From Kiritimatiellia bacterium (GTDB taxonomy: Bacteria > Verrucomicrobiota > Kiritimatiellia > RFP12 > DVOR01), in the NCBI GenBank assembly GCA_031552845.1, contig JAVBMC010000028.1, forward strand, positions 72,394-136,393: 64,000 bases of DNA, in the 5' to 3' direction. Shown in pieces: positions 2,066 through 44,989 of this stretch. The notes beneath the pieces were generated by a model. The model was given only the letters and a program-made list of their open reading frames with translations, did no database searches and was not told where the DNA came from. Position 1 is the first letter of the stretch, and every line of letters begins with the position of its first letter. Position numbers and translations under genes: made by a program.

Positions 2066-3241
2066 TCAAATCAATCTGGTTCTTCCGGTTAAAAGCTCCT
2101 GCATCATGGCTTGCTTGAGGGCGCGGGTCTTCTCCCGTCGCTGCTCCAACGCCGCCAGCTCCGCATCCATGTCCGTCAACACTTCGGCGATGGCGGTTTG
2201 TTCGGGGAAAGAAGGAAGTTTAAGCATAAGTGTCTTTAAGTCTTTCCCATAGAGATGATGGATTGTGATTCCTTGGGTAAGTTCGGCAATTTCATGTCTC
2301 CTTGCTTGCGTCAAGTAGTTCGCTAGAAAGACAGGGGCGTAGTCATTATCTTTTCGCCGGATGATGATAATGTCCCCGCCAAGCGCCACGTTGTCCATGA
2401 GGAGCACCGATGCAGTAGCCAAATCAATTCCGGTGGTCGTCGTAGAACCGGGCATTAGTACATCACCTTGAATTGAGGGACAACCGTCACTTGAATTTGT
2501 TAGACTGAAAACGTCCGAAATTACCCGGCCATAGGTAGTGAATAACTCGCCATAAAGAATGCATTGGTGAGTTCCTGAAGTCGTTGTCAGTGATTTCGAA
2601 AGTGCGTTTCCTTTCAAAACATCTGCGATGCTCCCCAATCGTATTTCTCGCCACTCGCCGGAAAAGCCGGAGAGACGGGTTTGGCTGGTGAGGAGTTGCT
2701 GCATGGTGGCCTGTTTGAGGTCGCGTTTTTTGGCGATTAGCCGATCCAACCCACCCAGCAGCTCATCCACATCGCTTAACGCCTCCGCGATAGCGTGTTG
2801 TTCGTTTTTGGATCGTGGCACTCCGATCCTAAGTTGAAGAATCTTGGAGACTGATAATCCCGGCTGGGCCGATGCTTCGGATAAGCGATTAAGGCGCATT
2901 TCTCCGAGGGCATAGGTTAAGAACTTGATGTTCGTGTCTTCGAGAGGGGTCACAACCACAGCGTGCTCTGATGCGAAGAACATCCCGGTTACACCAATTA
3001 CGTTACCGCATAGTGCGCCTTGCCGACCAATGATCGCAAATGATCCGGAGTGGGTATATTGGGACGTAAAGCCCCGCAGTCCATTCCCACCGTAGCAAGG
3101 ATATTGCGAGTGCTCGGTAATTCTTGACGCCGTGATGGTCTCGCCACTCTTCATCGAGGATATTGCTGAAAGTGTCTTTACCTCCCACTCCTCCGGAATG
3201 ACTCCGACCTCGGTCTGCTTGTATCCGGTCTTCACTTCCAT
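2066..3241 (-). CDS. hsdS: Type I restriction-modification specificity subunit HsdS
   Basis: 391-aa ORF with two target-recognition domains and conserved HsdS coiled-coil repeats (LPSFPEQTAIAEVLTDMDAELAALEQRREKTRALKQAMMQELLTGRTRL, and the central ...LIAKKRDLKQATMQQLLT...). Overlaps hsdM by 10 nt. Confidence 0.9.
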   Translation of the reverse strand: MEVKTGYKQTEVGVIPEEWEVKTLSAISSMKSGETITASRITEHSQYPCYGGNGLRGFTSQYTHSGSFAIIGRQGALCGNVIGVTGMFFASEHAVVVTPLEDTNIKFLTYALGEMRLNRLSEASAQPGLSVSKILQLRIGVPRSKNEQHAIAEALSDVDELLGGLDRLIAKKRDLKQATMQQLLTSQTRLSGFSGEWREIRLGSIADVLKGNALSKSLTTTSGTHQCILYGELFTTYGRVISDVFSLTNSSDGCPSIQGDVLMPGSTTTTGIDLATASVLLMDNVALGGDIIIIRRKDNDYAPVFLANYLTQARRHEIAELTQGITIHHLYGKDLKTLMLKLPSFPEQTAIAEVLTDMDAELAALEQRREKTRALKQAMMQELLTGRTRLI

Positions 3242-5748
3242 ATCATCCCCATCTGTTTGAGATGCTTTTTTACTTTAGCGGCGAGCACGGCCACTTCGTC
3301 GGTAAGCTGTGGCAACGGGGTGGCGTAGCGTTCCGCAAGTTGGCAGATGCGGCTGGTGAGAGTTCGTGAGACACGATCCAACTCGTCCTGTACAGCGGTT
3401 GTTATGATGGCCATCCATTTGTCGTCCACGACGAGGGTCTTGATGTCGTCCTCGGTGAGCGTGGGGTATTTGACGTAGAGTTTGTTTTCGAGATCTGTCT
3501 GTGCGGCTTTGAGCCGTGCCTTGGTGCCGGTCTGTCTGTTGAGCAGAGCGGCGTAGTCTTTGAGGGCTTGGCGTTCCTCGGCGTAATCTGGATCACTCTC
3601 GATTTCCTTGAGACGGGTTTGCACGGATTTTGATGTGATTTTCTGCTTGTCACCTTGGCCTTCGATGGCTTCCGCGAGTAGCCCTTTCTCACCGCTGTGC
3701 TCCTCGCCGCTGTGCTCCTCACGCATTTCGTCGAGCTGTTGCTCAATGCCGGCTAGTCTAGCTTTGATGGTTGCAATGGCATGGCGTTCAGCGGTGAAGT
3801 AACGGGCAATCAGCAGGTCAGCGGGGAGGAGATCGGACTTGAAGCGGCGCGTACCTTTCTTGACGTCTTCCTCCTCGGGCCAGACGAGTTTGCCTTCCTT
3901 GTTTTTGATCTGCGTGATTTCGCGGAGCAATGCCCCCGCTTTCCATCCGGCGTCGGAAATCAGGTAGCAATCATCCTTCATGGTCGAGTCCCAGTGATCC
4001 ATGAGGTGTTGATAGACATCGTAAGCGTCGAGCAGCGGCACGGTCTTGAAGGTGGCGAGCAAGTCCTCGGAGATGCTTTCAATGAGCGGCTTGGGATGGC
4101 CATTCTGGGCGAAATCTTTGAGCTGAGGAACGGTGGTCTTTTGCCATTTTACGAAGAGCTTTTTGGTCTTGGCTGTGAATGCAATGAATTCGGCGTGAGA
4201 AAAGATTGTCGGATTTACCTTGTCAATGGAACGTTTGAGCTCAAAGTAGCCGGAGCGACTGGACTTGAACAAGGCAGCACGCAGATTAGGCATAATTTTC
4301 CAGTAATTGCCGAGTGCATCAAGGTCGTGTTTCGGGATGCCGCCGCGCAGGTGGCCGTCGATGTCCTGTAGGTCCTCCGGCTCGGTGCTGTCGATGTAGC
4401 GCGGGAGGTTGAGGTTGTAGTCATTTTTTGGGTCGGCGATTTCGGCGACGGAGACCATACGGGCGTAGCGCGGGTCGCTTTCATCCTGCCGGGCGAAGGT
4501 GTCCACGATCCTGTGGATGTCCTGCTCTCGGAGTCTGTTTTTCGGACCGTCCTTTCTGAAGCCTTTGGAGGCATCCATCATGAAGATGCCCTTGCGGGCG
4601 GTGGCGTTTTCCTTGTCAAGCACAATGATGCAGGCAGGAATACCCGTGCCGTAAAAAAGGTTGGCAGGCAGGCCGATGATGGCCTTAAGGTAGCCGGAGC
4701 GGACGAGCTGCTGGCGAATGACAGCCTCGGCATTACTGCGGAAAAGGACGCCGTGCGGAAGAATGCACGCGCCTTTGCCCGTGCTCTTCAGGGAGCGGAT
4801 AATGTGGAGAAGGTAGGCGTAGTCGCCTTGCTTTTTCGGTGGCAAGCCCCAAGGGAAGCGCTGGAATTTGTCATCGCTGCCGTTCTCGCCTAGAGTGAGG
4901 CCGGTGGACCAAGCTTTGTCGGAGAACGGAGGATTGGCAACGACGTAGTCGTAGGTGCGGAGTTTTTGTTCGTTGTCTTTGTCTCTGAACTTGGGATCGA
5001 AGAGGGTGTTGCCCGAAAGGACATTGGCTGTCGGAAAGTCATGCAGGATCATGTTCATACGGGCGAGACCGGCAGTAGTCACATCCTTCTCCTGCCCTTC
5101 GAGTGTAATGTGTTTGCCCGCTTCGGCAGCGACTTTCAATAGTAACGATCCCGATCCGCAGGTGGGATCGTAGGCAGTGGTCCCAGCCTTGGAATTGGCT
5201 GGAGAGATACCGATGACTTTCGCCATGATCCGGCTGACTTCGGATGGAGTGTAGAATTGCCCCTTACTTCTTCCGCTTTCGCTGGCAAAGTGCCGCATGA
5301 GATACTCGTAAGCGTCGCCGAGGATGTCATCGTTTTCTGCGCGGTTCTTTGAAAAATCGAGTGCGGGGGTTTCAAAGATGGCGATGAGGTTGCCCAACTT
5401 TTCGACCTTTTGCGCGCCATCACCGAGCTTGTTGGAGTCGTTAAAGTCTGGAAAATAGCTGCGGGCGAGACGGGAGTTGGTGTCAATGAGCGGTTGGATG
5501 ACCCGCGTGTTGATGAGGTTGCCGATGTCGCTGTTGCCTTTAAGCGCGACCATGTCTTTGAAGCTCGCGCCCTTCGGAATGACGACCGGTGGCTTGAATC
5601 CATCGTAGTCCCCGTATTTGTCGGAGATGTATTTGATGAAAAGCATGAACAGGACGTAGTCCTTGTATTGGCTGGCATCCATTCCTCCGCGCAGCTCATC
5701 GCAGGAAGCCCATAGAGACGAATAAAGGTCAGATTTCTTGATGGCCAT
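3232..5748 (-). CDS. hsdM: Type I R-M N6-adenine DNA methyltransferase HsdM (long form, ~838 aa)
   Basis: N-terminal HsdM_N-like region, SAM-binding motif I, catalytic NPPF motif (VVANPPFSDKAW), and a long C-terminal coiled-coil extension. Confidence 0.9.
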   Translation of the reverse strand: MAIKKSDLYSSLWASCDELRGGMDASQYKDYVLFMLFIKYISDKYGDYDGFKPPVVIPKGASFKDMVALKGNSDIGNLINTRVIQPLIDTNSRLARSYFPDFNDSNKLGDGAQKVEKLGNLIAIFETPALDFSKNRAENDDILGDAYEYLMRHFASESGRSKGQFYTPSEVSRIMAKVIGISPANSKAGTTAYDPTCGSGSLLLKVAAEAGKHITLEGQEKDVTTAGLARMNMILHDFPTANVLSGNTLFDPKFRDKDNEQKLRTYDYVVANPPFSDKAWSTGLTLGENGSDDKFQRFPWGLPPKKQGDYAYLLHIIRSLKSTGKGACILPHGVLFRSNAEAVIRQQLVRSGYLKAIIGLPANLFYGTGIPACIIVLDKENATARKGIFMMDASKGFRKDGPKNRLREQDIHRIVDTFARQDESDPRYARMVSVAEIADPKNDYNLNLPRYIDSTEPEDLQDIDGHLRGGIPKHDLDALGNYWKIMPNLRAALFKSSRSGYFELKRSIDKVNPTIFSHAEFIAFTAKTKKLFVKWQKTTVPQLKDFAQNGHPKPLIESISEDLLATFKTVPLLDAYDVYQHLMDHWDSTMKDDCYLISDAGWKAGALLREITQIKNKEGKLVWPEEEDVKKGTRRFKSDLLPADLLIARYFTAERHAIATIKARLAGIEQQLDEMREEHSGEEHSGEKGLLAEAIEGQGDKQKITSKSVQTRLKEIESDPDYAEERQALKDYAALLNRQTGTKARLKAAQTDLENKLYVKYPTLTEDDIKTLVVDDKWMAIITTAVQDELDRVSRTLTSRICQLAERYATPLPQLTDEVAVLAAKVKKHLKQMGMIWK

Positions 5749-5847: not shown

Positions 5848-6996
5848 CTAACCGTTTTCCCCAGTGAAATACTCGGCGAGGGTGTGGAGAAACTCTGGTT
5901 TGAGAGAAACGGCTAGGTTTTCTTTCTGGATAACATCCAATTTCTTGGTCAGTTTTGAGAAGCTGATGTATCCGCAGACTTTGCCGAGTGGTTTTTCGCG
6001 GAGCGAGAAGGTGGGGCGGCGGATTTCTTGCGCGACTTTGTTGCGGCGTTCATCCGGTGCCACAAGGAAAAGGTTGATGGATAGATTGGGTTGTAGTGCC
6101 AGCAGGTCACTCATGCGCAGCAGTCCGGAGTAAACCGAGGTGGTGCATTCAATCTCAAACGCAGCCAAGATAGAGTTTCCTTTGAGCCAGAGTACATCAA
6201 TCAGTTCAATTGTCCGATTCGTGGCCTCATTAAATTGTGTGGGGAGCTCTTTCACCATGCGGTCAAATGCACCTAGTTCTTTACTTTTCCATTGGCGTGA
6301 GCGGTCGTTCCGCGCAACCCACAAATCAAATCCCATCTCTTCGCCTAGCTTGAGCAAGCGGTACTGAATCTCGGTGTGCCGTGTAGTGGCAGCGTCTTCG
6401 CCATCTATTACGGTGGATTGTTTTTTAGTCTTTACTGTCTCTTCTGTTTCCGGCACAGTGACCTGTACCTTAATAGTTGCTTTTCCCTTGCGTCGTTCCG
6501 CCATGTAGGTTGGCTTATAGGCTAGCTGTTTGGGGTCAACGGCACGCCAAGTCGGATTTGTATCAGCTTTCTTGAGCAAGGAGAAAATCAAGTCACCATC
6601 GGCCGTATTTTGAACACGCTTAGGACCGCCACGGATCATACACTTATACTTATTCCGATCTTCCGGTCCCGTGTAAAATGCTACTCGTCCTTCTAATTCT
6701 TCCATGGGAACACCGTGTTCGGGCGAAAGCAAAACAAGAGGCTTTACTACAAATCGTACCGGAAAGACATCATCCTGCCAAATTCTTGATTGATCTTTTG
6801 AGCGTTCAACGACCTTTAATGCTCCAACAAGACGCTTCATGCCTCCAGTCAGATAGCACAAGAAGATATCCCCGGATCTTACTTGCTCTATCGCAGCCTC
6901 ATTGGTTTTGCTTTGACGAAATCCTGAAATCCGTGCTCCGGATTTTTGAAACTCCGCCCATGTTGTGGCGGTAAACATATTAAACCAATAGGTCAT
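5848..6996 (-). CDS. EVE/PUA-like domain protein fused to an uncharacterised C-terminal domain (possible PD-(D/E)xK-like nuclease)
   Basis: 382-aa ORF. The N-terminus MTYWFNMFTATTWAEFQKSG...IFLCYLTGG...LVGALKVV resembles EVE/PUA-like modified-base readers. The C-terminal ~150 aa (IDVLWLKGNSILAAFEIECTTS...) has no obvious family. Driven by a TGgTATAAT promoter and a GAGGAG RBS. Confidence 0.5.
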   Translation of the reverse strand: MTYWFNMFTATTWAEFQKSGARISGFRQSKTNEAAIEQVRSGDIFLCYLTGGMKRLVGALKVVERSKDQSRIWQDDVFPVRFVVKPLVLLSPEHGVPMEELEGRVAFYTGPEDRNKYKCMIRGGPKRVQNTADGDLIFSLLKKADTNPTWRAVDPKQLAYKPTYMAERRKGKATIKVQVTVPETEETVKTKKQSTVIDGEDAATTRHTEIQYRLLKLGEEMGFDLWVARNDRSRQWKSKELGAFDRMVKELPTQFNEATNRTIELIDVLWLKGNSILAAFEIECTTSVYSGLLRMSDLLALQPNLSINLFLVAPDERRNKVAQEIRRPTFSLREKPLGKVCGYISFSKLTKKLDVIQKENLAVSLKPEFLHTLAEYFTGENG

Positions 6997-7035: not shown

Positions 7036-7128
7036 CAACCATGTGCCGATTATACCACGTCATCCCCTTAAAAGCAATCCTCAAGAAATCTTTCTGCGGT
7101 GGCCTTTTGTGGACGGTGTTTCTTGATG
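7036..7128 (-). promoter_or_regulatory. Conserved ~93-bp promoter cassette, copy 1 (-35 TTGCTT, 17 bp, extended -10 TGgTATAAT), driving the EVE-domain gene
   Basis: The minus strand reads ...aagatttcttgaggATTGCTTttaaggggatgacgTGgTATAATcggcacatggttg... ending ~45 nt before the ATG at 6996. It is ~80% identical to the 8696-8788 copy. Confidence 0.6.
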
Positions 7129-7619
7129 CGACTAGCGCGATGTCCATACGCCGTCCGCGGCTGGTATTTTCAATCGGTTCATTTTTCTCGCTCTTCTTCA
7201 GCGTCTCCGTATCTGCCGGGAGTTTCTTCGTTATTTTCAGGGGTCGTATATCAGGTGATATCGTGCTCATAAATCAGGTGATGTCGTACTCGTGTATCAA
7301 GTGATATGGTACCCCGAAAGAAGAGGAGTTTGCACACCTGGCAAATAACTGCTTCAGATACCTCTCCTATCCTCCGCGCCTCCGCGTGAGTTTTTTAGGT
7401 GTCGAGTAGTTTTAGGTATTGCTGCTGGCGTTCTTTGTTTTAATGCAGTATCGGAATGATATCAAACAAAAAAAGTCTTTTAATTCCGTATTGTTCCGAA
7501 TGGATTGCCGCACATATGTGTGTTTGAGCGAGTGTTTCTTGATGGTGGATGCGGGGCTGGTGGTGCGAGTTGCGTGTTTTGAGGTACATTTTGCGGGGGA
7601 GCGAATGGAGTATGTGGGA

Positions 7620-8618
7620 TTACTCACTATTCTTGCCGCCAGTGTCTTTTTGCATTAATGCCCGAATGGCGCGGTCGAAGTCACTTTCAAGCTGCTTCAT
7701 TTCGCGTGCGCGGTAGAGCTCGAATTCTTTTTCAGCCTTTTCGATTGCCTGTTTGTGAGATATGCGTCCGGCATCTTGCAAAATCTTTCTTTTGTGGCTG
7801 AGTATTTGATTGTCGAGTGCTTCAACCCAGTCTTGCATGGTCATTGGGGCTTGTTCCAGCGCCTGAAACTCCGCAAAGTCCAAGAATTGCGATACTAAAA
7901 GATTGAGGCGCTGTAATTCAAGCTCGGAAAGGTAATTTTTCGCTATCCTCACATCGTCTTTTGTGATGTAACCGCCCTTGAAATTGGTCATGCCGACAAG
8001 CGGCTTTTCGTTGTCGACCCGCTCGTGAATCACTTCGGCGGCGGTATGCTCGTGTACTGCAAAATGCAGTTTGTTTTGCACCGTTGCAAAGAATGTTTTG
8101 GTCATATCAGAGCGCGGATCGTAATCCGTCGCCGTAGCGTAAATGTCGGTAACTTGCTGGTAAAAGTTGCGTTCGCTGCTGCGAATGTCGCGGATGCGTT
8201 GTAGGAGTTCCCGGAAATAACGGCCGCCACCGTTTTTCAAGCGATCGTCGTCAAGCGTAAACCCTTTGCGGATATACTCGTTCAGTCGCTTCGTAGCCCA
8301 TTGACGGAACTGTGTGCCGCGTAAAGATTTAACTCGGTAACCGACCGAGATTACCACATCAAGGTTATAATAGTCAACTTGATACGTTTTGCTGTCGGCA
8401 GCAGTTGTTGCAAACTTTGCAACAACTGAATCCCTCATCAATTCGCCCTCTTCAAATACGTTTTTGATATGGCGGGAAATGGTAGATTTGTCACGTTCAA
8501 ATAACTTTGCCATTCGATCGAGAGACAACCACGCAGTTTCTGCATCAAAGTGCGTATCAATTGATATTTTCCCATCTTCTGTCGTAAAAATGATCATTTG
8601 ATTTTCTTTGCCGGTCAT
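7620..8618 (-). CDS. RhuM-family virulence/defense-associated protein
   Basis: The 332-aa product begins ...IIFTTEDGKISIDTHFDAETAWLSLDRMAKLFERDKSTISRHIKNVFEEGEL, the characteristic RhuM N-terminal HTH-like region. RBS AGGAGAA. Confidence 0.8.
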   Translation of the reverse strand: MTGKENQMIIFTTEDGKISIDTHFDAETAWLSLDRMAKLFERDKSTISRHIKNVFEEGELMRDSVVAKFATTAADSKTYQVDYYNLDVVISVGYRVKSLRGTQFRQWATKRLNEYIRKGFTLDDDRLKNGGGRYFRELLQRIRDIRSSERNFYQQVTDIYATATDYDPRSDMTKTFFATVQNKLHFAVHEHTAAEVIHERVDNEKPLVGMTNFKGGYITKDDVRIAKNYLSELELQRLNLLVSQFLDFAEFQALEQAPMTMQDWVEALDNQILSHKRKILQDAGRISHKQAIEKAEKEFELYRAREMKQLESDFDRAIRALMQKDTGGKNSE

Positions 8619-8695
8619 ATCACTGTTCTCCTAATTTCCGTAGCAATGAGTTCGCCCCTGCGGCGGAGTACATGCTTGTGTTGTGTACGTACAAG

Positions 8696-8788
8696 CAACC
8701 ATGTGCGGATTATATCACGTAGTATCGTCCAAAGCAATGCTCAAGAAATCTTTTTGAGCCGGCCTTTTGGGGCGGCGTTTCCTGATGG
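8696..8788 (-). promoter_or_regulatory. Conserved ~93-bp promoter cassette, copy 2 (-35 TTGCTT, 17 bp, extended -10 TGaTATAAT), driving the RhuM gene
   Basis: The minus strand reads ...aagatttcttgagcATTGCTTtggacgatactacgTGaTATAATccgcacatggttg..., ~85 nt upstream of the RhuM ATG at 8618. Confidence 0.6.
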
Positions 8789-9039
8789 AGGATGAGCGGG
8801 CTCTATATTTGATGGCGGAAAGTAGGCTGTGACTGAAGATAGGTTTTATAATTCGGCAGATGCGGAGTGTTTGTGAAATAGAAGGTCGGTTTGGTCGCGA
8901 TGTTCATGCATTATATTCACCTTACGTTATTCTTCGCGACCGAGTCGAGCACATTAAAAGCTATAACCACGCGATTCATCCCCTATTATCTATTCTTTAT
9001 CACTTATTACTTCGCCTTTCATGTTGGAGTCCCCCGACG

Positions 9040-9420
9040 TAGCTCGGATATTTGTGTGAGCCGGGCGGGTATTTTGTCTGAGCCCAGTGTGAAAAATGTG
9101 TGAGCTGAGTCAATATTTTGTCTGAGCCGTATGGATAATTTGTGCGAGCCGGGCAAGAATTTTGTACCACGTGCCTCGCACAAATTCAACATGCGCGTTT
9201 TTCGAGCGTGTTATATCGTCCGTACTCGCGGAGCACGAATCATAATTTTGCGGGATACGTATCAGCGTACCACGCATCACGTATCATCCATTTGCGCATC
9301 ACGTGCTATCGTACTGCGGGATACGTGATATAAGTTTGTGTGTCACGTGACATCGTACCGGATGATGTGTGTCATCGTACTGCGGGACACGTGTCATCCG
9401 TTTGCAGTACACGTATCCTT
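9040..9420. repeat. AT-rich degenerate tandem repeats (TTTGTNNGAGCCGGGC units; cluster of CACGTG-centred palindromes)
   Basis: 9040-9170 holds 4-5 units ...tttgtgtgagccgggc / ttttgtctgagcc / tttgtgcgagccgggc. 9230-9420 holds repeated ...atcgtactgcgggaYacgtg..., cacgtgctat, gtcacgtgacat and gacacgtgtcat. GC content is far below the flanks. Confidence 0.6.
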
Positions 9421-10369
9421 GTGCTGAGAAGCGAAGTAATATGTAGTAGATTAGAGGCAATAAATTGAGCCGAAAATGTTATAATGCCCAATATATGTAG
9501 GTGTTTTGAAGGTAGGGAGGGGTTCACCGAAGGCAGGCGCAGAGGAGGATGGGTGTTACGCGGAGATGCTGAATAAGCGAGCTCCCAACCTGTCTCGACT
9601 TCTCCGAGTTCTTCGACTTCATCACCACTACGAATACGCAACACCGACACTGTCAACGAAAATGTAGGTGCTCCAAAAGAAGGCACAAGCCCGACTTCAC
9701 CGATTTTCGCCGACTTCATCGACATGCAAAGTAGCGCAACAGCGAACATCATAACAAGAGCAGATAATGTGAGTACAGTAAACATGATAAAAGAAAAGTT
9801 GAAAGGTGAAAGAAACGAGAGTCTCGTAGCAGGCTCGACCCAATAGCCTGTTTGTTGTTGATGGCTCCTTGGAGCTTAAGCTCTCGTATGTCGGGGGGCG
9901 GAGATTCGTATTGAACTCCGAGCCACAAGGTCCGAATCAGTGACGAGTCACTCAATGGGGTCAACAGGGATGCAGTTTAGCAGAATTAAGGAATAAGTCA
10001 AGAAGAGAAGCAATAGGTAATAAGTGATAGGTAATAAGTTGTTGAACAGGAGGGAATAGGATGAAGAAAATAAATGGAGAGGGGTAAGCAGGAAAGGCTC
10101 ACGCGGAGGTGCGGAGAGAGAGGGGAAGGGTATCCGCAGATTGCACAGATGCTCGCAGATGGGGGGTGAGAGGAAGGGAGAGAAGGGGCTAGGCGTGGTG
10201 TAGCGGTTTCGGCGAAACGCGCCCTACCTACTGACGCACGCCAAAGAATTCGCATAATGCCGGCGAGGACGTCGGGTGCTTTCAAGCGGCATAACCGGCA
10301 CGCGATTTCGTCGATTTCATAGGCTTCTGCAACAAGCCAACACACCCTGACTGATGGCGCGTCGAGGAG

Positions 10370-11092
10370 TTATTTGATGGCGCCGTAGGCGGCGAAGGTG
10401 GTGTTTTTGTGGAGGAGTTCGACTTGGCGGAAGCCGGATTGGCGGAGGAGGTCGAGCTGGTAGGGGATGGAGCGGGGGGTGTCTTCTTGCGCGATGTAGT
10501 CGAAAACTTGTTGGCAGTAGTCGGCACCGCCGAGGGCGGTGAGGTAGTCGGCGTAGCGTTGTTGCATGAGGCGGTCGATGGCGGGGTTGTCGTGTGCGAC
10601 GAGGTCGGTGATCCAGAGGCTGCCGCCGGGGCGCAGAAGGCGGTGGAGTTTGGCGAAAACGGCTTGCCAGTCGGCATCGTCGCGGAGGTGGTGGAGGACG
10701 GCGGCGGCGAGGATGATGTCGTAGCCTTCAGCGGGGAGGTCGGCGGTCCGGATGTCGGATTGGATGAGGGTGACGGTGCCGGTGGTGCAGGGGGTGACGC
10801 GTTGTTGGGCGCGTTGGAGCATGGGTTGGCTGAGGTCGAGGAGGGTGCAGTTGGCGTCGGGGACGAGTTGGAGGAGTTTGAGGGTGTTGTTGCCGGCGCC
10901 GCAGCCGATGTCGAGGATGTTGCGGATGGGGGTGGTGACGGCATGGGCGGCTTGGGTGATGAGGTCCATGGCGAGGGCGGCGTCGATGGTGGAGGTTTGG
11001 CCGGTTTGGAGGTTGCTGAAGCGGTCGACGTCGGAGTCGAAGCGTTGGCGGATTTGGTCGACGGTGGCTTTGGGGGTGGGTTTGTTGTTCAT
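10370..11092 (-). CDS. Class I SAM-dependent methyltransferase
   Basis: Motif I ILDIGCGAGNNTL, with post-I acidic and motif II regions. The start is assigned to the internal Met (MNNKPTPKATVDQIRQRF...). The upstream 60 codons are low-complexity and probably not translated. Confidence 0.75.
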   Translation of the reverse strand: MNNKPTPKATVDQIRQRFDSDVDRFSNLQTGQTSTIDAALAMDLITQAAHAVTTPIRNILDIGCGAGNNTLKLLQLVPDANCTLLDLSQPMLQRAQQRVTPCTTGTVTLIQSDIRTADLPAEGYDIILAAAVLHHLRDDADWQAVFAKLHRLLRPGGSLWITDLVAHDNPAIDRLMQQRYADYLTALGGADYCQQVFDYIAQEDTPRSIPYQLDLLRQSGFRQVELLHKNTTFAAYGAIK

Positions 11093-11341
11093 GAAGGTAG
11101 TGTAGTATAAAGCGGGGGCGGGGGCAAGCTTTTTAGATGGTTGGGCCGACGGTGTGGAGTGGGGGAGGGTGATTGGTTTTGAGTGGGCGAGCTTGGGTTT
11201 TTGCTGGATAAAGTGTATTAAAATATGGTTTTTATTGGCAGAGGCTGAAAAAGCCTTGCTTTTTGCGTGCATAAAGAGTACAATTACTGCATGTTTAGAG
11301 GGTATGACAAAATAGAGGCCAGATAAAGGAGTGGAAAAGGT

Positions 11342-18656: not shown

Positions 18657-19539
18657 CCCTTTAAGCTACAAATATCTCGCATTGTCGCAAAAAAACGCTC
18701 CCAAAGCAAGCCCTAAATCTCAATGTGTAGCGGCAAGCTCACGCGGAGACGCAGAGGCGCGGAGAGAAAAGAGAAGAGGACACCAGCGATGAAGTCGACG
18801 AAAATCGGAGAAGTCGTGCTAAGAGAATATGGAGGGCGGCTTTGCCAAAACCGCCGACCTTTTTAATACGGCTAACGCAAACAAACTTGTGATGAACGCC
18901 TTAACCCTTCCAAAACGTTGTTTCGCCCGCTGTTCCCTGAAACGGATGGATTGGGTGCCACGTTCTTTCTTTTGCCACCATTTTTTATAGCCTCAATATG
19001 GCGTCAAAAACGAAGTGCTTTTGGGTTTGAAGGCACGTGCCTTCAACTTCAAAGGCACCTGTAATGTACTCTTACTTACACGTGTAACCAAACTTTACTT
19101 ACGCCTGTAAGTAGAACTCACTTGCACGTGCGAGTGAAGTTGAATACACCTCGATTTTGCATAGTGTAAAACAGAGAGTAAGGCTGGATCTTTAAATTAG
19201 GGAGTGTAGAGTTGCAAGGAGGCTTGTTTTGGCACGTTCGATTCCTTGATTGGTATCCTGTTACCTGTTTCTGCTGTTTGTTCGCTGAGCAATTGAAGTG
19301 AAAACTCAAAACCGGGCTGTTTGGGGGCATGTTGGAGAAGGTGATCGCGGTGCCCATGGAAGCAAGTTCGCAGGGTGTGCGATTTTGAATGTCTTGTCTT
19401 TTCTGCTTGCTATTGGCGGTTGGGTCTGTTACACTTGAGATTGTTGGAGGGATTATGCCGCGTGTCGGTAGGTGTGCATTGCGTGTCGGTTTTTGAGGCG
19501 GGGACGGTTAGAGAATTTTTCGATAAAGGATGGCACAGG

Positions 19540-20973
19540 ATGAGTTTGAAGAAACGGTTTATCTGTCTGCTTGTTTTCTTGTTGTGTTGCGGGAGCGGTT
19601 TGCTGGTGTTGAATGGACCGGTGATTCGGGCAGATTCGGTGGCGTCTGCGAATGAGGAGGTGAGGCCGATTGATTTTATTGTGCGGACAACGGTGGATTA
19701 TTTTGAGGCGGTGCGGCAATTCCGTGTGTTGGCACCGGAGCTTGTTGCAGGGGAGAGGTTCAGTGCAGAGACGGCATCGGCGAATCTGTTCTTGTATTAT
19801 ATTACATCGCAGTATGGGTTGCATTGGCATACGCCGGAGTTTGATAGTCTGGTTTTGAGTGAGTTTAAAAAGACCTATCCGCCTATTACGCGCGAGGTAC
19901 TTGAGGCTGTGCGCGTGCGTTTGGATGAGACGCCGCCGCCTAGGCCTTGGCCGCGTGAGTGGGTGTTGAAATCAGAGTTAGCTATGCCGGAGTATTTTTT
20001 GCCGCATCCGCGTATTACGCTTATCAATGACAAAACGGTGCTGATTTATTATAAGATCTGTCAGGTTGACGATAGTGCATGGGAGGGGGTTAAGGAGGAA
20101 TTTCTGGTGTTCTTTGCAGATGGGCAGCGTCCACCTCAGGCAGTTGCTGCGGCAGAGAAGCAGGAGTTTTTACCAGTGATAGATTTGAAACTGAAGGAGC
20201 GCACGAATGGCTTCTTCCAGCCTCGTCGTTCAGGTCCTGATCTTTTGTGGAGAACGATGGCCAAGTATTGCTGTGTATTGGCGGATAGCTATCATGAACT
20301 GTTATTGGATGGATTGCAATGCGGGAATCCACAGGTTGAGGAGGGTGCATTTAATTCCTTGCACCATCGGTTTGTCTCGGCGTATTATTTTAATCAACGT
20401 GCGCTGCCGCCGAAGATCGATTATTTGAATCTTTGCTGCATGGCGTTGTCCTCAAAATTGCACGTTGAAGAGAATGAAAAGGTTGTATCTTTTTGGGCAC
20501 TTGGCAACCCGTTCACGATTAAGCATATCAAGCATCGTAATTGTTTTTGTCAAACGGATGAGTTTCTTTCGTTTGGGAAGCGGTTAAAGTTGAAGCTTGA
20601 TCTGTTTTGTTTTATGTGGCCTCGTGTAGAGAAACGTTGCGTTGTGGTTCCGCTGACGCGCGAGGACCTCAAGGCTGAAGTATTGTTAAACTTTCAGTTT
20701 CTGGGCAAATGCTCGGACGTGTGGAATGCGCTGTTTGAACAATTGAATGTCGGCCTGCGAATATCGAATAAGATGGGGGGCGTATTGCTGCCTGCCGAGG
20801 CGATTGAAGATTTTAAGCTGCATCCGCCGGTCATTATTCAGAATTCGCGTGATGTACAAGTGGATTCGCAAGTAAAGAAAGCTCAGAAAGCATTTGATAA
20901 GACAGCTGAAAAGATATCTCCAGCGACGCAGAATGACGGGCAGAAAATATCGTCGGGGCAATTAGAAAAGTAA
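19540..20973 (+). CDS. Secreted hypothetical protein (orphan, low GC)
   Basis: In-frame ATG at 19540 preceded by RBS aaagga. Signal peptide MSLKKRFICLLVFLLCCGSGLLVLNG. ~477 aa with no recognisable domain. The region is ~45% GC against ~60% in the flanks. Confidence 0.6.
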   Translation: MSLKKRFICLLVFLLCCGSGLLVLNGPVIRADSVASANEEVRPIDFIVRTTVDYFEAVRQFRVLAPELVAGERFSAETASANLFLYYITSQYGLHWHTPEFDSLVLSEFKKTYPPITREVLEAVRVRLDETPPPRPWPREWVLKSELAMPEYFLPHPRITLINDKTVLIYYKICQVDDSAWEGVKEEFLVFFADGQRPPQAVAAAEKQEFLPVIDLKLKERTNGFFQPRRSGPDLLWRTMAKYCCVLADSYHELLLDGLQCGNPQVEEGAFNSLHHRFVSAYYFNQRALPPKIDYLNLCCMALSSKLHVEENEKVVSFWALGNPFTIKHIKHRNCFCQTDEFLSFGKRLKLKLDLFCFMWPRVEKRCVVVPLTREDLKAEVLLNFQFLGKCSDVWNALFEQLNVGLRISNKMGGVLLPAEAIEDFKLHPPVIIQNSRDVQVDSQVKKAQKAFDKTAEKISPATQNDGQKISSGQLEK

Positions 20974-20981
20974 AGGAGCGT

Positions 20982-21395
20982 ATGATGAAGAAACTAGGGT
21001 TTGTGTTATTGGTGCTTTCCACACTCGGCGTTTTTGTGTGTTGTTGGGCCTCGGACGTTTTTTTGAAATCAGTTGGCTGGGAGGGGCTGTCGCATGAACA
21101 ACAGTTTTTGATTGATCGATTGTGCAACTTGATGTGGATTCCACCCGCGCTCTGTATGCTTGGGGGACTTCTCATTACGGCAGGGAGTCTTCGGATGAAG
21201 TCCAATGCCGGACGGTGGTGGATGCTGATTGCCACGTGTAGTATGCTCGCGTTGGGATTGTCCGGGTGGCTCGCTTTGTTTATCAATAGCGTGCTGTTTG
21301 CGTTCTTCCTGACGTTCTATCCCAAAGAGAAAGGGACGTTGACCGATGGTTCGGTTTTTCTGGACGGCATGCAATCCGATAGCGGATGCCGATAA
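20982..21395 (+). CDS. Small membrane protein (hypothetical)
   Basis: 137 aa with 3-4 predicted TM helices. RBS aaggag 8 nt upstream. Follows the previous gene by 8 bp, so probably the same operon. Confidence 0.55.
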   Translation: MMKKLGFVLLVLSTLGVFVCCWASDVFLKSVGWEGLSHEQQFLIDRLCNLMWIPPALCMLGGLLITAGSLRMKSNAGRWWMLIATCSMLALGLSGWLALFINSVLFAFFLTFYPKEKGTLTDGSVFLDGMQSDSGCR

Positions 21396-21428
21396 GGCTG
21401 GTGATCGAGTGTTTTTGAAAGGGGTGTT

Positions 21429-21818
21429 GTGGTGCTTGCTTCGTTCGGTTATTTGCTCTGGGCCGTGTATGCTCCCTTATTCTTACTTTTGGCCTGTGCG
21501 TGGGTGTTTCGTCGTTATCTGACGCTGACGCGTATTCTCTGCATCTGTTGGCTTATTATTTGCCTGTTGCTAGTGGTTTGTGAAGTGGGTTGTAATTCCA
21601 TTGTGCCTGTTCGAAGGGTGCGTTGGTTTTCTGTTTTATTGCAGAGCCTATTGCCTATCTTGTTGCCGGCTATCGTCATCATCGTGACTGCTAAAAAAAA
21701 GCATGGATGGCTGCATGGATTGGCGACGATATTGTGGCTAGTCCCTCCTTCTGTTCTTTTGAGCGAATGGATTTTTAACTACTTTGGCTTCATCAGTCGT
21801 TATCAGGTTATTTGGTAG
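21429..21818 (+). CDS. Small membrane protein (hypothetical)
   Basis: 129 aa, hydrophobic (~4 TM). GTG start. Third gene of the low-GC operon. Confidence 0.45.
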   Translation: MVLASFGYLLWAVYAPLFLLLACAWVFRRYLTLTRILCICWLIICLLLVVCEVGCNSIVPVRRVRWFSVLLQSLLPILLPAIVIIVTAKKKHGWLHGLATILWLVPPSVLLSEWIFNYFGFISRYQVIW

Positions 21819-21948: not shown

Positions 21949-24465
<2,517 letters not shown>

Positions 24466-29590: not shown

Positions 29591-29636
29591 CGGCGATATC
29601 AATTAGTGGCATTTGCGACGGGTGTTACCCATCCGC

Positions 29637-29738
29637 GGGCTTGTAAGCCCGCGAGTGTAGGCTTGTAAGCCCGTTGGAGCGGGCTTATAAGCCCCTGAGT
29701 GTGGGCTTGCAAGCCCGTGGATGCGGGGTTCGAAGCCC
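29637..29738. repeat. Tandem array of 5 x 22-bp units each containing the palindrome GGGCTT-NN-AAGCCC
   Basis: Palindrome centres at 29643/44, 29665/66, 29687/88, 29709/10 and 29731/32, exactly 22 bp apart: gggcttgtaagccc, aggcttgtaagccc, gggcttataagccc, gggcttgcaagccc, ggggttcgaagccc. Confidence 0.85.
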
Positions 29739-29920
29739 GTGAAATGCAAGCGTATGGATGGCGGAATGTTAGGAGCACATTTTCAGGCGGTTGTTGCCTG
29801 TATTTCGAATACGCCGACGTTATCTGCGCAAGCTGCTGAAGTTGACCCGAAATAGGGTTTCTCCTCTGTTGCAAGGATAATTCATGTTCCATTTTAGTAG
29901 GTGAAAGTCAGTTTTGTGGG

Positions 29921-29949
29921 TTGCCTTATCGGTGGAGGTGTGTTATACT
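29921..29949 (+). promoter_or_regulatory. Sigma70-like promoter (-35 TTGCCT, 17 bp, -10 TgtTATACT) for the paralog operon
   Basis: ttgccttatcggtggaggtgtgttatact lies ~120 nt upstream of the ATG at 30071. Confidence 0.5.
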
Positions 29950-30070
29950 CCGTATGTTTTCGACAGACAGAAAAGCGAGAGGACATATAGTGCGTTTGGC
30001 GGGGGGCTGCTGGCGCGCGGAATCTGCCGAAAGCCATGGGGTAACTGTACCTTATTATAAAGGCTGTATT

Positions 30071-33000
30071 ATGAAACGAAATGTATTGTTAGTCTCCGCT
30101 TTAGCGCTTGTTTCAATGTGCCATGGTTTTACGATGCCTGTGTGGGAGGTTGGGACGATTACCGGTGATACCGACGTCATTTCCGAAGGGACAACGGTTA
30201 CGGCGTATGCAGTTGGCGGCGCGACGGAGGTGAATGGCGTGAGTTTTGTGAAGACGCCGAACAACGGTAATACGAGCGTTCAATATTGGGGGACTTATTT
30301 GACCGTCAATATCGGCATTCGGGGAACGCGCGCTTATTCGGCTACACGCGGTACCCCAAGCGGAATGAGTGAGGCTTATGTTACGATGTTGCGGGGAGAG
30401 CTGATGGCGTATACGGATGCGAACTCGACCTTTGAGGCGGAGGGAGTGATTCAGCTGCAGGGCTTGATTCCGGGCGCGCAATATATTTTGCAGGTGTGGT
30501 GTAATGATAGCTCAGGGTCGTCATCCGCCTCGCGGCAGACGATGTTGATTGCGAATATTTTTGATGCAACAGTGACGGTGCGGCAGAACATGGAGGCGAA
30601 GGCAGGAGGGGCGGGGCAGTATGCTGTTTTGCGCTTTACGGCCCCGGCGACTGCGCTGACGATCGATTTGACGGCTCCGCATGTGATCGGGGCAACGGAT
30701 GCTATTTTGATTTCCGCGATTCAGTTGCGGGAGGTTGCTGCTACGACGCCGAATGCCTATGCGTGGAGCGGTGGCGTTAATAATGTTTGGGCGGCGGATG
30801 ATTTAAACTGGGGCGGCGATGGGGCGCAGGCGCCTTGGGCAGTTGGCAGCGGCACGGAGGCGATGGCGTTGATTTATCCGCCGCAACCCACCACCACCAC
30901 GGTATTGCGGGTGGAGTCGACCATTGAAGCGGGAGTGGTGTCTTCAGTGGGCAGTACAGTTTTGCAAGGCAACGGGATGTTGAATACCACAGCTGCCGTG
31001 GTTGATAGCGATCTGCTTGCAGATGTGCGCGTGCAAACGGATGTGTTGCAAAAACATGGCGGCGGCGTGTTGTCGTTTGTCAATCCGTTAGGGCATGCAG
31101 TAGGTGTACTGGCGGTTTCAAACGGTGCGGTGCGCTTGTCGCCACTGCCGATATTTGGCGGTCTGACGACCCACTTGGATGCGTCCGATATCACGAGCAT
31201 GGATGTTGACGCGAATGGCGGCGTGGTAGCGTGGCGGTCGGTGAATGGAGCTCCGGCGCGTTATACGTTCCCGACTGCCGATGCAGCCACGTTTGTTCCG
31301 CCGGTGTATGCGGCGGATGCGTTTGGCGGACGCGGTGGCGTACGGTTTGGTTCCGAGGGGCCGTCAAAGTTGACGTCGACAGTAACAACAAATGCCCGCA
31401 GCGTTTTCTTGGTGATGAAGCTGAGTGTATTCAAGGACTATCAAGAGGTCTGGGGGATTAATGCGCAAAACAGTGATACGATCCGCGGTATACGGTTGTG
31501 GGGAGCAGGCTCGCCGAACAACATGAAGTGGTTTACTGACCGTGGCAATACAACCGGCGGGAATGGAGTATTGAACGATGAAGAGCTGTTCTGGGTAGAT
31601 GGAGTTTGGAGCGAAAATTATCCATTGGCGTCGACAACGGCAGCGCAGGTGTTGAGTTTGCAAACGAGCGGCGGCGCGGTGGGTAAGTATTTTGCGATGG
31701 GGTCGTATTTTTATGCGTCGGCTAATCGGACTGGACGGTATCTGCAAGGTGATGTGGCGGAATTGATTGTGTATGACCGGTTGTTGTCGAGTGCTGAACG
31801 GCAGGTCATTGAACAGTATTTGATTGCCAAGTGGGCGGGAGCTGAGCGGCAGAGTCTGGCGGCGAATATTTTGTCGGACTCCATGAAAGTGATTGTGGAG
31901 GCGCAGGGGACTTTATCGCTGGATGGCGTTTCGCAAGAGGTGAGCGGCTTGTCTGGAGACGGCACGGTTGCCGCTACGGCTCCGGCGGAGTTGGTCGTGA
32001 ACACAACACAGGATGCGGTGTTTAATGGGGCATTTAAAGGGGCGTTAAATGTCCGCAAGCAAGGCACGGCGGCGTTGAAATTGTTGGGCAGCAGCACTCA
32101 CAGTGGCATGTTGGATATCCGTGAGGGCAGCGTCATCGCGGGGCAGGAGTTCCCTACGGAGGGTTTGTTGTACCGCTTGGATGCGGGTCGCCCAGAAACG
32201 TTGACTGTAAATGCATCCGGGCAGGTGTCGGCATGGGCTGACTCGCAAGCCGACAGCACTGTGGTGTTCAGTCAGGCCAACGCGGCGACTCAGCCGGATT
32301 ATGTGCCAAGTGCTTTTAACGGCCAGGGTGGCGTGCGTTTTGGTGCAGAAGGGAAAGTAACCTCGTTGGAATATGACCAGAGCACTGTGAATAAGACGGT
32401 GTTTCTGGTGGTGTATACCGAGTCCACCACGGTTGAGTTTGCGGGCGTGTGGGGGAGTTGTGCCAGTGGACAAAATGTAGGATTCCGTTCAAGCGGAACT
32501 GCAACCTCAGGCGGGTATGGCGCTTCAAACCAATGGGGATTCGCAAAGGGGAGTTCCGGCGACTTTGTTCCAGATAACAATAACGGGTCTTTCCGGACAA
32601 ATGGTGTTGCGGTGGGTAATGTAGGTCCCGTTATTCCGGAGTTTGAGGTACAGGTAATCGCACTGAATCGTAAGACGGCGTCTACCTTTGCCCAGACGGC
32701 TGTCGGCGAATATTATTGGGAGGGCGAACGGCCTTACATGGGTATTATCGGCGAAGTGATTGTTTACGACCGTGACCTGACGGCGGACGAGTTTGCTCAA
32801 GTAGAGGGGCTGTTGATGTTGAAGTGGGGGGCACGAAAGGAGACTGCGGCATCGCACTTGTCGTCCTCGTCGGGGTTGGTAATGACAAAGGGTACGGTCT
32901 TGGATTTGAAGGGGAGCGATCAGGCGGTGCGCAGTTACAGCGGTGCCGGGCAAGTGGTGAATGGGCGTTTGATTGTCAGCGAACAGGTCACGGCTACGGG

Positions 33001-33277: not shown

Positions 33278-33306
33278 ACATAGGTGAGAAATATAGGAAG
33301 CAGATT

Positions 33307-36552: not shown

Positions 36553-36576
36553 TTGTAACTGAGAAGGACTAAAAAG

Positions 36577-44878: not shown

Positions 44879-44989
44879 ATTCTCTCCTTGCGTTTTGGAA
44901 AAAGAAGAGAAGGGGAAGACACCAGCGTTCATCGCGGGGTTTTCCACACGCTCTCCATTCTCCGTGGGTGTGTGTTCGGGCGGGGCAGG

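Follow-up and report, generated by a model that had tools for sequence, protein, structure and literature searches.

Seventeen repeats in exact 22-base register within a gene-free stretch beside a Kiritimatiellota defence island

A 1.75-kb gene-free stretch between a defence island and housekeeping genes (positions 8619-10369 of the 64-kb window, the whole length of DNA that we analysed) is non-coding DNA built around 17 repeats at exact 22-base spacing. The block formed by these repeats belongs to an undescribed set of 22-23-base arrays that occur elsewhere in the same genome. The explanation that we consider best, held at somewhat less than even probability and drawn from sequence features, is that the repeats are arrays of helically phased operators, to which an oligomerising repressor of the defence genes would bind, such that the block would constitute an extended non-coding upstream control region of a rhuM-like gene.

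No credible gene resides in this stretch. The ORFs at 9372-9785, 9749-9964 and 9998-10345 are present but look non-coding by codon usage and Pfam, in agreement with the initial annotation, which had found no convincing ORF here. Specifically, their codon-usage log-odds are negative (-0.10 to -0.22, versus +0.11 to +0.52 in 30 real genes), a Pfam scan of 12 ORFs from the block gives zero matches, and an exhaustive HMMER search of the 137-amino-acid ORF against 1.84 billion representatives yields three weak matches, all to giant repetitive proteins, and no conserved homologue. Together these results rule out a coding sequence or a pseudogene. The 9998-10345 ORF had also been said to overlap a methyltransferase gene, which it does not, as that gene occupies 10370-11272. 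The drop in GC content to about 45% that had been described is real: the values are 0.436, 0.464 and 0.488 over 8501-10000, and the 44-49% of the stretch compares with 0.58-0.66 in the housekeeping genes on its right.

Placement of the stretch at the edge of a defence island is likewise upheld, since the block lies at a boundary that is both compositional and functional. The island genes comprise a PDC-S06 ABC-ATPase, hsdS, hsdM, an REase-like gene (5848-6996, minus strand) and the rhuM-like gene (PF13310; PADLOC PDC-S05; 7620-8618, minus strand), which is the gene downstream of the block. To the right are housekeeping genes for a SAM methyltransferase, an Na/H exchanger and MutL, and the island boundary falls between rhuM and this housekeeping-type SAM methyltransferase. 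The methyltransferase has a core of about 240 amino acids; it belongs to the generic class I SAM enzymes and is no DNA methylase of the island. When it was used for a synteny check, its best homologues (57-68% identical) came from many phyla and had no common neighbours. The gene content left of the block matches the PrrC/RloC - type I R-M - RhuM defence neighbourhoods described in the accessible part of PMC3710099, where RhuM is proposed as a toxin domain. That part of the account differs in that it concerns proteins and describes no phased upstream repeat array. Residues 29-53, at the N-terminus of the RhuM-like protein encoded here, are HTH-like, with weak Pfam matches (E about 0.003), and the protein has no solved homologue.

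The core of the stretch is one unbroken 374-bp block (9051-9425) of 17 unit lengths in 22-bp phase, 22 bp corresponding to two helical turns. Array A (9051-9184, plus strand) contains five direct TTTGTNNGAGCC units that start at 9051, 9073, 9095 (degenerate), 9117 and 9139, followed by a hybrid sixth unit at 9161. Their spacing is exactly 22 bp, and the tandem units recognised by the initial annotation are thus more regular than it described. A single inverted TTTGTNNGAGCC copy is present at 9173-9184. Array B (9206-9425, plus strand) consists of about ten 22-bp units with the consensus GCGGGAYACGTGWCATCGTACT, each bearing a short palindrome centred on ACGT or CACGTG, and its register equals that of array A to within 1 bp. 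The motif of array A is different and non-palindromic. Four of the 21 CACGTG sites in the window fall in 9168-9393, where a cluster of such palindromes had been noticed, and they are part of the ACGT-centred units in 22-bp register. Array B also contains super-repeats of 44 and 66 bp.

This periodicity greatly exceeds chance. Autocorrelation of at least 0.55 is seen in 32 sliding windows, every one at a lag of 22 or 23, and none of ten local shuffles reaches this value (maximum 0.53). The units, each composed of a 10-14-bp core plus 8-12 bp, are only 57-72% identical in pairwise comparisons, yet the register is exact to the base pair across all 374 bp. A CRISPR array was rejected on the basis of the 22-bp total unit size, this level of identity and the lack of cas genes. 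The repeat block is flanked on both sides by a 38-nucleotide imperfect inverted repeat (27 of 38 positions complementary), whose AT-rich left arm (8984-9021) carries GTAATAAGTGATA on the minus strand and whose right arm is at 9425-9462. Inverted repeats also bracket a larger 1-kb segment, and a 14-bp tandem, ATAGGTAATAAGTG (1.9 copies; 10013-10039, plus strand), includes GTAATAAGTGATA as an exact inverted copy of 8998-9010. An invertible promoter (inverton) was rejected as well, given that the inverted repeat matches at just 27 of 38 positions, that no recombinase gene is present and that the promoter lies outside the bracketed segment.

All seven non-coding tandem arrays in the window have a unit of 22-23 bp, and their sequences are unrelated save that array B has a motif in common with three 23-bp units at 7248-7316 (plus strand), some 170 bp ahead of the promoter belonging to the REase-like gene. 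The remaining arrays, all given on the plus strand and each with a unit of its own, are five CACGTG-centred palindromes with unit-specific arms and a 22-23-bp period upstream of an unknown 532-amino-acid gene (19032-19142; the 19020 array), five copies of GGGCTTGTAAGCCC at 22 bp (29632-29742), six copies of AGTAACGTTACT at 22 bp upstream of the nrdD promoter and a cobalamin riboswitch (45292-45430), and four direct units of 23 bp where hom and an unknown gene diverge (55131-55240; the 55131 array). Phased arrays thus occupy five intergenic sites besides the block, three of which adjoin housekeeping genes (nrdD, hom, large secreted-protein genes). All seven are in intergenic regions with a promoter that serves one or more of the flanking genes, and convergent gaps contain none; five lie between co-directional genes, two begin about 40 bp past the upstream stop codon, and distances to the promoters downstream range from 60 to 700 bp. 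Array A and the 55131 array are non-palindromic direct repeats. The palindrome arms of array B and of the 19020 array co-vary unit by unit (p about 0.02 each), and the nrdD array shows conservation of its palindrome columns but not of its spacer columns (p=0.016-0.018). The comparison of core and spacer conservation across all arrays combined is not significant (p=0.15).

No such arrays were found in other loci from Kiritimatiellia and the PVC superphylum (Planctomycetes-Verrucomicrobia-Chlamydiae; about 280 kb), nor in 88.7 kb of other Kiritimatiellia loci. The nrdD array is absent from nrdD relatives with 78-88% amino-acid identity, and the one at 88% carries just one AGTAAC..TTACT palindrome ahead of its nrdD. 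Relative L028 does have a 22-bp array, but it is not comparable, as it forms a long hairpin on which two genes converge. Searches of the literature yielded nothing relevant on phased 22-bp arrays or on repeats in Kiritimatiellota. For the AGTAAC array, a reading as ECF promoters was set aside after the spacing worked out from the sequence proved unsuitable, and a sigma-54 enhancer idea was dropped as -24/-12 sites are not enriched.

Because arrays of the same kind are present at five other sites, the repeats are a property of the genome and not the scar of an island or of a decayed plasmid. A relic at the island edge, whether an iteron-type origin, a Tn7/Mu-like end with multiple 22-bp transposase sites or an integrase att region with its arm-type sites, is improbable. 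Plasmid iterons of the R6K, pPS10, RK2 and pSC101 type are 17-22-bp direct repeats with about 22-bp spacing, and array A does resemble them in having five to six direct repeats at exactly 22 bp (9051-9182; spacings 22, 22, 22, 22) beside an AT-rich stretch at 8960-9020. Such a relic would also fit the position of the block at the border of a low-GC defence island, the inverted repeats around both the block and the larger segment, and the two copies of the 12-mer TATTTGATGGCG, one at 8806 and the other at the stop codon of the methyltransferase gene (10371). In addition, the minus strand of the array-A unit contains GACAAAATA, which may be part of Tn7 TnsB sites. However, Pfam, NCBIfam and PADLOC scans of ORFs of at least 110 amino acids in 1-24 kb revealed no Rep, primase or helicase-loader, and this region likewise has no transposase, integrase or relaxase gene. 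Neither 72,556 plasmids nor 50,697 phages gave a match to 8619-10369 in distant-mode blastn, and the viral and metagenome contigs that resemble array A show only chance two-copy duplications. The block has no cluster of DnaA boxes but one 8/9 match (9130-9138), and such matches are scattered across the whole window. Moreover, the chromosomal counterparts of the arrays lie by housekeeping genes. For a Tn7/Mu-like end, the direct 22-bp repeats are present, but the window holds neither a transposase gene nor a second inverted set; the other end of the island is outside the window. Of the suggestions made initially, the iteron-like appearance thus survives as a description of the 22-bp-phased repeats, but a plasmid iteron origin lacks the support of a rep gene or a plasmid match, and a decayed mobile element is likewise unsupported, given the gene content and the other intergenic arrays.

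The sequence between the repeat block and the rhuM-like gene provides a different context. The gene starts with an ATG at 8618, has an AGGAG ribosome-binding site, and follows a predicted sigma-70-type promoter (8709-8737, minus strand) composed of a -35 TTGCTT (8732-8737), a 17-bp spacer and an extended -10 TGaTATAAT (8709-8717). A consensus promoter scanner did not list this promoter because its -35 agrees with TTGACA at just three of six positions. The arrangement TTGCTT-N17-TGgTATAAT also occurs at 7049-7077, upstream of the neighbouring REase-like gene, where a 93-bp promoter/leader block (8696-8787, minus strand) is duplicated with 81% identity (7036-7128). The spacer of the rhuM promoter is filled by a copy of the array-B motif, ATCACGTAGTATCGTCC (8714-8730, plus strand), and the repeat block begins about 310 bp further upstream. 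Indeed, ATCASGTGATATCGTAC has six matches in the window versus 0.16 expected, on one strand only and all upstream of the two defence genes, with 8714-8730 as the sole match outside the arrays. Repeat comparison separately ties 8710-8728 to 9298-9333 through one direct and one inverted pair. The spacer of the paralogous promoter has a weaker likeness to the array-B motif (CCACGTCATCC), and a position weight matrix derived from array B does not place the promoter copy above background and is too weak for genome-wide site mapping. The initial annotation mentions neither this promoter nor its duplicate nor the array-B motif copy at 8714-8730, and together these three point to a regulatory role.

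We propose that a sequence-specific, oligomerising DNA-binding protein would load cooperatively on the array along one helix face and would reach the promoter-spacer operator through looping or raised local concentration, such that two potentially toxic defence genes could stay repressed until a signal frees the protein. The N-terminal HTH of the RhuM-like protein is a candidate autoregulator, and array A would then be the target of a second factor or of another domain. The block may be one case of a lineage-specific habit of placing arrays of sites in 22-23-bp phase within promoter-bearing intergenic regions. Several observations count for operators: sites stand at integral helical turns over 17 unit lengths, with periodicity at lag 22 or 23 only; one copy of the strongly over-represented ATCASGTGATATCGTAC overlaps the core promoter in the -35/-10 spacer; the promoter block is duplicated ahead of both genes; all seven arrays are in promoter-bearing locations; the palindrome columns of the nrdD array are conserved; the block has neither coding potential nor a known RNA; and RhuM has its weak HTH matches. 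Counting against them, none of the arrays has an identified regulator gene beside it, and 60 to 700 bp upstream of promoters is far for simple operators. Furthermore, a motif private to each locus would demand many different binders genome-wide, and the co-variation of arms within units in arrays B and 19020 is not predicted by one sequence-specific dimer. The combined conservation test, the failure of the weight matrix to single out the promoter copy and the array-less nrdD relatives also weigh on this side.

Tandem operators for oligomeric repressors are exemplified by the ArgR ARG boxes of about 21 bp, the tandem 20-bp operators of the GlpR/DeoR family, lambda OR/OL and the HipB operators. 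The block is like these in that short sites, palindromic or direct, recur about every two helical turns, one of them overlaps the core promoter, and binding would be cooperative along one face of the helix. In contrast with the two to five sites of these systems, there are 10-17 units here, most of which lie 300-700 bp ahead of the promoter; no gene for a cognate regulator was seen, arms vary between units, and the same architecture recurs with unrelated motifs at many loci of one genome. Partition centromeres are likewise made of phased repeats (R1 parC, ten of 11 bp; pSK41 parC, four of 20 bp; F sopC, twelve of 43 bp). These share with the present arrays their length and strict phasing, and they double as operators while coated by a small DNA-binding protein, but no par genes are present here and several unrelated arrays occupy one chromosome.

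A serious rival, possible if on balance doubtful, is that lineage-specific slippage or unequal recombination amplifies 22-23-bp intergenic segments, sometimes seeded by an operator or a palindrome, to give neutral or selfish minisatellites without a function of their own. Such a process would fit unrelated unit sequences of identical length at seven loci, the 44- and 66-bp super-repeats as ongoing block duplication, the array-free relatives and other Kiritimatiellia loci, and the non-significant combined test of uneven column conservation. The resemblance of array-B units to copies of the promoter-spacer segment and the lone palindrome upstream of nrdD in the 88% relative could likewise represent seeds. 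On the other hand, we know of no mutational mechanism that fixes a 22-23-bp unit. Unit-specific palindromy is kept in two arrays, the palindrome core of the nrdD array is conserved relative to its spacer, and the divergent units of the block nonetheless hold their exact register, all of which speak against neutral amplification.

The repeats might instead act as RNA, either as a ToxI-like antitoxin against a RhuM-like toxin or as a small RNA from the hairpin-rich segment 9805-9967 or from 9493 rightwards, with a 30-nucleotide repeat complementary to the start of a small ORF at 18787; we judge this quite improbable. The proposal of RhuM as a toxin domain (PMC3710099) and the tandem repeats upstream of both toxin-like genes are compatible with it. 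So is the dispersed repeat of about 30 bp, CGACTTCNCCGA..CGACTTCATC (9596-9623 and 9688-9721, plus strand), which is complementary at 90-91% to a third, inverted copy at 18787-18820. The strong promoter, however, lies between the arrays and the gene and not upstream of the arrays, and this position, together with the identity of the gene as RhuM (PF13310) and not ToxN, also sets the locus apart from a type III (ToxIN-like) toxin-antitoxin system. Promoter-like (10001-9974) and terminator-like (9827-9815) matches exist on the minus strand but are as frequent in shuffles. Array A and the 55131 array are non-palindromic, and AGTAACGTTACT stems would be weak. The suggestion of a structured non-coding RNA finds no backing in an Rfam covariance scan of 8600-10400, which is empty at E<=1, or in fold z-scores of -0.5 to -1.8; the only gathering-level Rfam match in the window is the cobalamin riboswitch (44967-45147), and a tRNA search found none. 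The hairpins described within 9840-9960 are present but do not exceed chance, with fold z-scores of -1.4 and -0.5 over 9800-9990.

Two further features of the stretch concern its repeats. A GC-rich motif reported in several copies is a short tandem of CGCGGAG in a purine-rich tract (10097-10134, plus strand). It is exact at 10100, and its relatives at 18738-18767 (plus strand; the copy at 18748 has three mismatches, with none expected by chance) and 7357-7390 (minus strand; 84% identity over 37 nucleotides) are present, but the copy placed at 9566 is a mere 13/15 match (9558-9572). Exact-protein look-ups recovered only unitigs of run SRR23967709, which are broken within the block at 9721 and 9936, and the end of Logan unitig L026 coincides exactly with 9721, the right edge of the dispersed repeat.

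It is very improbable that the arrays serve as structural DNA, in which short palindromes would extrude cruciforms or absorb supercoils and so act as topological buffers or insulators, REP/BIME-like in function. The co-varying arms of arrays B and 19020, the five arrays between co-directional genes and the two that begin shortly after a stop codon would suit such a role. Conversely, direct repeats make up array A and the 55131 array, stems span just 5-9 bp, array B folds unexceptionally as single-strand DNA (z=-1.75), and cruciform extrusion has no need of exact 22-bp phasing. REPs belong to a single sequence family or a few, scattered through the genome and bearing GTAG/CGTC tags (PMC3733652). 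The present arrays resemble REP/BIME elements in that short imperfect palindromes cluster in intergenic DNA, frequently where both neighbouring genes run in one direction. They are not members of this class, since each cluster has its own sequence, with a motif in common only between the 7248 array and array B, and the rest are united by unit length alone; some are not palindromic.

More speculatively, this lineage may possess an undescribed genome-wide class of elements, namely 22-23-bp-phased arrays of 3 to 17 palindromes or direct repeats, with their own motif at each locus, in promoter-bearing intergenic regions. Such arrays could be platforms for filament-forming DNA-binding proteins or a new architectural or topological element, and the 17-unit rhuM block would be the largest, silencing defence genes. 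Neutral arrays would imply some unknown mutational process whose step is fixed at 22-23 bp; whether the arrays are neutral or not, the block is in all likelihood neither a plasmid origin nor a non-coding RNA gene. If they are protein-loading platforms, they would explain the silence of a toxic defence cassette (RhuM and the REase-like gene, in a type I R-M / PrrC-like island), and would bring to light a regulatory architecture spanning this lineage of the little-studied Kiritimatiellota, in which many promoters have 3-17 helically phased sites.

The initial observation of a gene-free, repeat-dense block between the defense island and the housekeeping genes (8619-10369) is mostly real, and the block is non-coding and highly ordered. 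It is AT-rich as reported (GC 0.44-0.49 over 8501-10000) and holds no convincing open reading frame, with codon-usage log-odds of -0.10 to -0.22 versus +0.11 to +0.52 for 30 of 30 reference genes. Twelve ORFs of the block have no match in Pfam, and the longest (137 aa, 9372-9785) finds just three weak matches among 1.84 billion representatives, all to giant repetitive proteins. An ORF at 9998-10345 was thought to overlap the methyltransferase gene, but that gene occupies 10370-11272 and the two are separate. The tandem units and CACGTG palindromes described previously exist, and their regularity is far above that first description. The GC-rich motif, a short tandem of CGCGGAG, has real copies at 10100, at 18742/18758 and, inverted, at 7372/7380, whereas a copy placed at 9566 is marginal. 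Hairpins are present at 9840-9960, but the predicted fold is no more stable than those of shuffled sequences (z = -1.4, -0.5).

At its left end the block carries the leader and predicted promoter of the minus-strand gene rhuM (-35 TTGCTT at 8732-8737, a 17-bp spacer, and TGaTATAAT at 8709-8717). A 93-bp promoter/leader segment (8696-8787, minus strand) recurs at 81% identity upstream of the type II REase-like gene (7036-7128), and both copies share the -35, the spacing and the extended -10. Next come an AT-rich arm (8984-9021) and array A (9051-9182), in which TTTGTNNGAGCC recurs every 22 bp as five good units and a hybrid sixth, with one inverted copy at 9173-9184. After a spacer of one unit length, array B (9206-9425) comprises about ten 22-bp units with the consensus GCGGGAYACGTGWCATCGTACT, each containing an ACGT/CACGTG-centered mini-palindrome and together forming 44- and 66-bp super-repeats. 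The two arrays span 17 unit lengths (374 bp) in registers 1 bp apart, and are followed by a second arm (9425-9462) that is complementary to the first at 27 of 38 positions. Farther right are two copies of a dispersed ~30-bp repeat (9596-9623 and 9688-9721; a third, inverted, lies at 18787-18820), and then, in order, the hairpin segment, a 14-bp tandem, a purine-rich tract with the GC-rich motif, and the methyltransferase 3′ flank. The 14-bp tandem contains GTAATAAGTGATA, an exact inverted copy of 8998-9010. This 13-mer occurs in the window solely as that inverted pair (8998-9010, minus; 10017-10029, plus), 1 kb apart, with degenerate copies at 9433 and 9988. An exact 12-mer, TATTTGATGGCG, is found at 8806-8817 and at 10371-10382, where it overlaps the methyltransferase stop codon; the pair represents either an att-like duplication around a 1.56-kb insert or chance (~0.1 expected). 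Exact copies of these proteins occur in a single public run, SRR23967709, whose Logan unitigs break at 9721/9722 (L026) and 9935/9936 (L011); the breaks imply either that k-mers at these points recur elsewhere in the genome or that a 214-bp segment is polymorphic.

Other parts of the window share the 22-bp phasing of the block upstream of rhuM. When autocorrelation was scanned in sliding steps across the window, 32 scan positions scored 0.55 or more, each of them at lag 22 or 23 of the 28 lags tried, and 0 of 10 local shuffles reached this value (maximum 0.53). Similarly, Tandem Repeats Finder assigns a period of 22, 23 or 44 to every non-coding array except a 27-bp repeat with a 14-bp period (10013-10039). 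No strong non-coding periodicity in the window lies outside arrays A and B and five others. These five are three units at 7248-7316, five CACGTG palindromes at 19032-19142 (array 19020), five copies of GGGCTTGTAAGCCC at 29632-29742, six of AGTAACGTTACT at 45292-45430 upstream of the nrdD promoter and cobalamin riboswitch, and four direct 23-bp units at 55131-55240 between hom and a divergent gene. All seven arrays are intergenic, and in each region at least one of the flanking genes has a promoter. Unit sequences are unrelated between loci, with the sole shared motif linking arrays 7248 and B. On the minus strand (55182-55197), the 55131 units resemble a sigma-54 -24/-12 element (TGGGAC-N5-TTGTA) every 23 bp; they lack the -12 GC, and the likeness is probably coincidental. 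A sigma-54 enhancer role for the arrays is not supported.

The shared motif of arrays 7248 and B, the 17-mer ATCASGTGATATCGTAC, has six matches with at most three mismatches in 64 kb versus 0.16 expected, all on the plus strand and all upstream of the two defense genes, rhuM and the REase-like gene. Outside the arrays there is a single match (8714-8730), which fills the 17-bp -35/-10 spacer of the rhuM promoter, and the repeat finder independently tied this site to array B. The paralogous promoter of the REase-like gene carries a weaker relative, CCACGTCATCC. Repressors that use auxiliary operators have this layout, with one site in the promoter spacer and many phased copies farther upstream, and a 22-bp period places every site on the same helix face. 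The RhuM-like protein, whose N-terminus is HTH-like (weak Pfam matches, residues 29-53), would on this basis be a candidate autoregulator. In its working, such a block would most resemble tandem operator arrays of the ArgR, GlpR/DeoR and lambda type, and would likewise be comparable to the phased repeats of plasmid partition systems, which are centromere and operator in one.

The operator reading faces several objections, which make a neutral minisatellite process specific to this lineage, with a step of 22-23 bp and perhaps pre-existing operators as seeds, a serious alternative. None of the arrays was found to have a regulator gene nearby, most units are hundreds of base pairs away from the promoters, and each locus has an unrelated motif, such that many binders would be needed. 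Furthermore, each palindrome arm matches its partner in the same unit better than it matches the arms of other units, in array B (means of 4.6 versus 3.3) and in array 19020 (6.8 versus 3.95; permutation p ~0.02 for each), which favors self-complementarity, whether selected or generated, over a single fixed recognition sequence. A core that looks conserved relative to variable spacer is significant for the nrdD array only (p = 0.016-0.018; combined arrays, p = 0.15), and the 8714-8730 promoter site is indistinguishable from background under a PWM of array B.

To the left of the block, every defense gene is on the minus strand: a PDC-S06/PrrC-RloC-like ABC-ATPase (2-2047), hsdS (2066-3241), hsdM (3232-5748), the REase-like gene with NmeDI_C (5848-6996) and rhuM, a RhuM/PDC-S05 gene (7620-8618). 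This set corresponds to the known PrrC - R-M - RhuM neighborhood (PMC3710099). A ~40-bp junction, CCCGCxCATCCxCCATCARGAAAC, is present on both sides of the rhuM cassette (7534-7560, 8777-8803, 7108-7128) and suggests a cassette-like insertion or duplication. To the right are high-GC housekeeping genes for a class I SAM methyltransferase (minus strand), a 179-aa unknown protein, a TM2 protein, a Na/H exchanger and MutL. GC3 is 0.49-0.69 for island genes versus 0.85 for the methyltransferase, and therefore the compositional boundary lies inside the block. The methyltransferase ORF is 300 aa with a core of ~240 aa; its start is probably near Met61, given that homologues of ~240 aa align to residues 61-300. 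Its closest homologues (66-68% identity, many phyla) carry annotations of small-molecule or tRNA methyltransferases, and it is a generic class I SAM enzyme of patchy phyletic distribution rather than a DNA methylase of the island.

The iteron-like region or decayed mobile element proposed initially fits this position and array A, which alone resembles plasmid iterons. However, no rep, transposase or integrase gene was found in 1-24 kb, no similarity in plasmid or phage collections and no relatives of array A in viral or metagenome contigs, and such readings fail to explain the housekeeping-adjacent arrays. An iteron origin fails on membership, having neither a Rep gene nor plasmid similarity, and we consider a relic of any such kind (iteron origin, Tn7-like end or att arms) improbable. 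A structured non-coding RNA, also raised at the outset, draws no support from the Rfam scan, folding or promoter placement, making it very improbable that the repeats act as RNA. The block also fails each membership test for CRISPR, REP/BIME, ToxIN, inverton and any Rfam family.

Elsewhere in the window, the GC-rich motif at 18738-18880 (plus) is followed by an SD-like purine tract, the 25-codon ORF MKSTKIGEVVLREYGGRLCQNRRPF and a GGCGG...CCGCC hairpin with a T-run. The start of this ORF corresponds, in inverted orientation, to the 30-bp repeat at 9596-9623 and 9688-9721. The motif, small ORF and CACGTG array precede a low-GC3 cluster of three unknown genes (19375-21818, plus; 532, 137 and 129 aa) in the same layout as upstream of rhuM. 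These genes, which may constitute a second acquired cassette, have no match in Pfam, PADLOC or NCBIfam. Three tandem paralogous genes of ~1100 aa (29921-39786, plus; 66-73% DNA identity in parts, no Pfam domain) follow a 1280-aa FlgD_ig/NHL protein.

The best named relatives of the host GyrB (21976-24465) are Kiritimatiellia MAGs at ~70% identity. By the same periodicity scan, other Kiritimatiellia loci (88.7 kb) and loci of Planctomycetes and Verrucomicrobia (~190 kb) have no comparable arrays; the repeats that it detects there are all coding, with periods divisible by 3. In the window, the cobalamin riboswitch (44967-45147, minus; 123 bits) lies in the leader of nrdD (anaerobic ribonucleotide reductase), with a TTGCCT-N17-TATACT promoter directly upstream. 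In NrdD relatives (88, 79 and 78% identity) the riboswitch is retained and the array is absent; NrdR-box-like palindromes accompany the riboswitch in nrdD relatives. The closest (L029, 88% amino-acid identity) has a single AGTAAC-N7-TTACT palindrome (235-262) upstream of the riboswitch, where the window carries six phased AGTAACGTTACT units, and this palindrome could be a seed for amplification. In a relative with 76% GyrB identity (L028), a 22-bp-periodic pair of duplicated arms (4489-4599) forms a ~26-bp hairpin between convergent lipocalin and XRE-type genes, probably a bidirectional terminator of another kind than the window arrays.

Phased arrays of 22-23 bp, in Kiritimatiellota or as a genome-wide feature, have no description in the literature searched. 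The block is neither a decayed plasmid origin nor a recognizable non-coding RNA, and is the largest local example of a lineage-specific family of 22-23-bp arrays. That this family represents a genome-wide class of phased loading platforms seems rather unlikely. Our preferred reading, operator arrays, is a real possibility that we hold tentatively: the block would be an extended control region of rhuM and the REase-like gene, composed of helically phased arrays of predicted binding sites.
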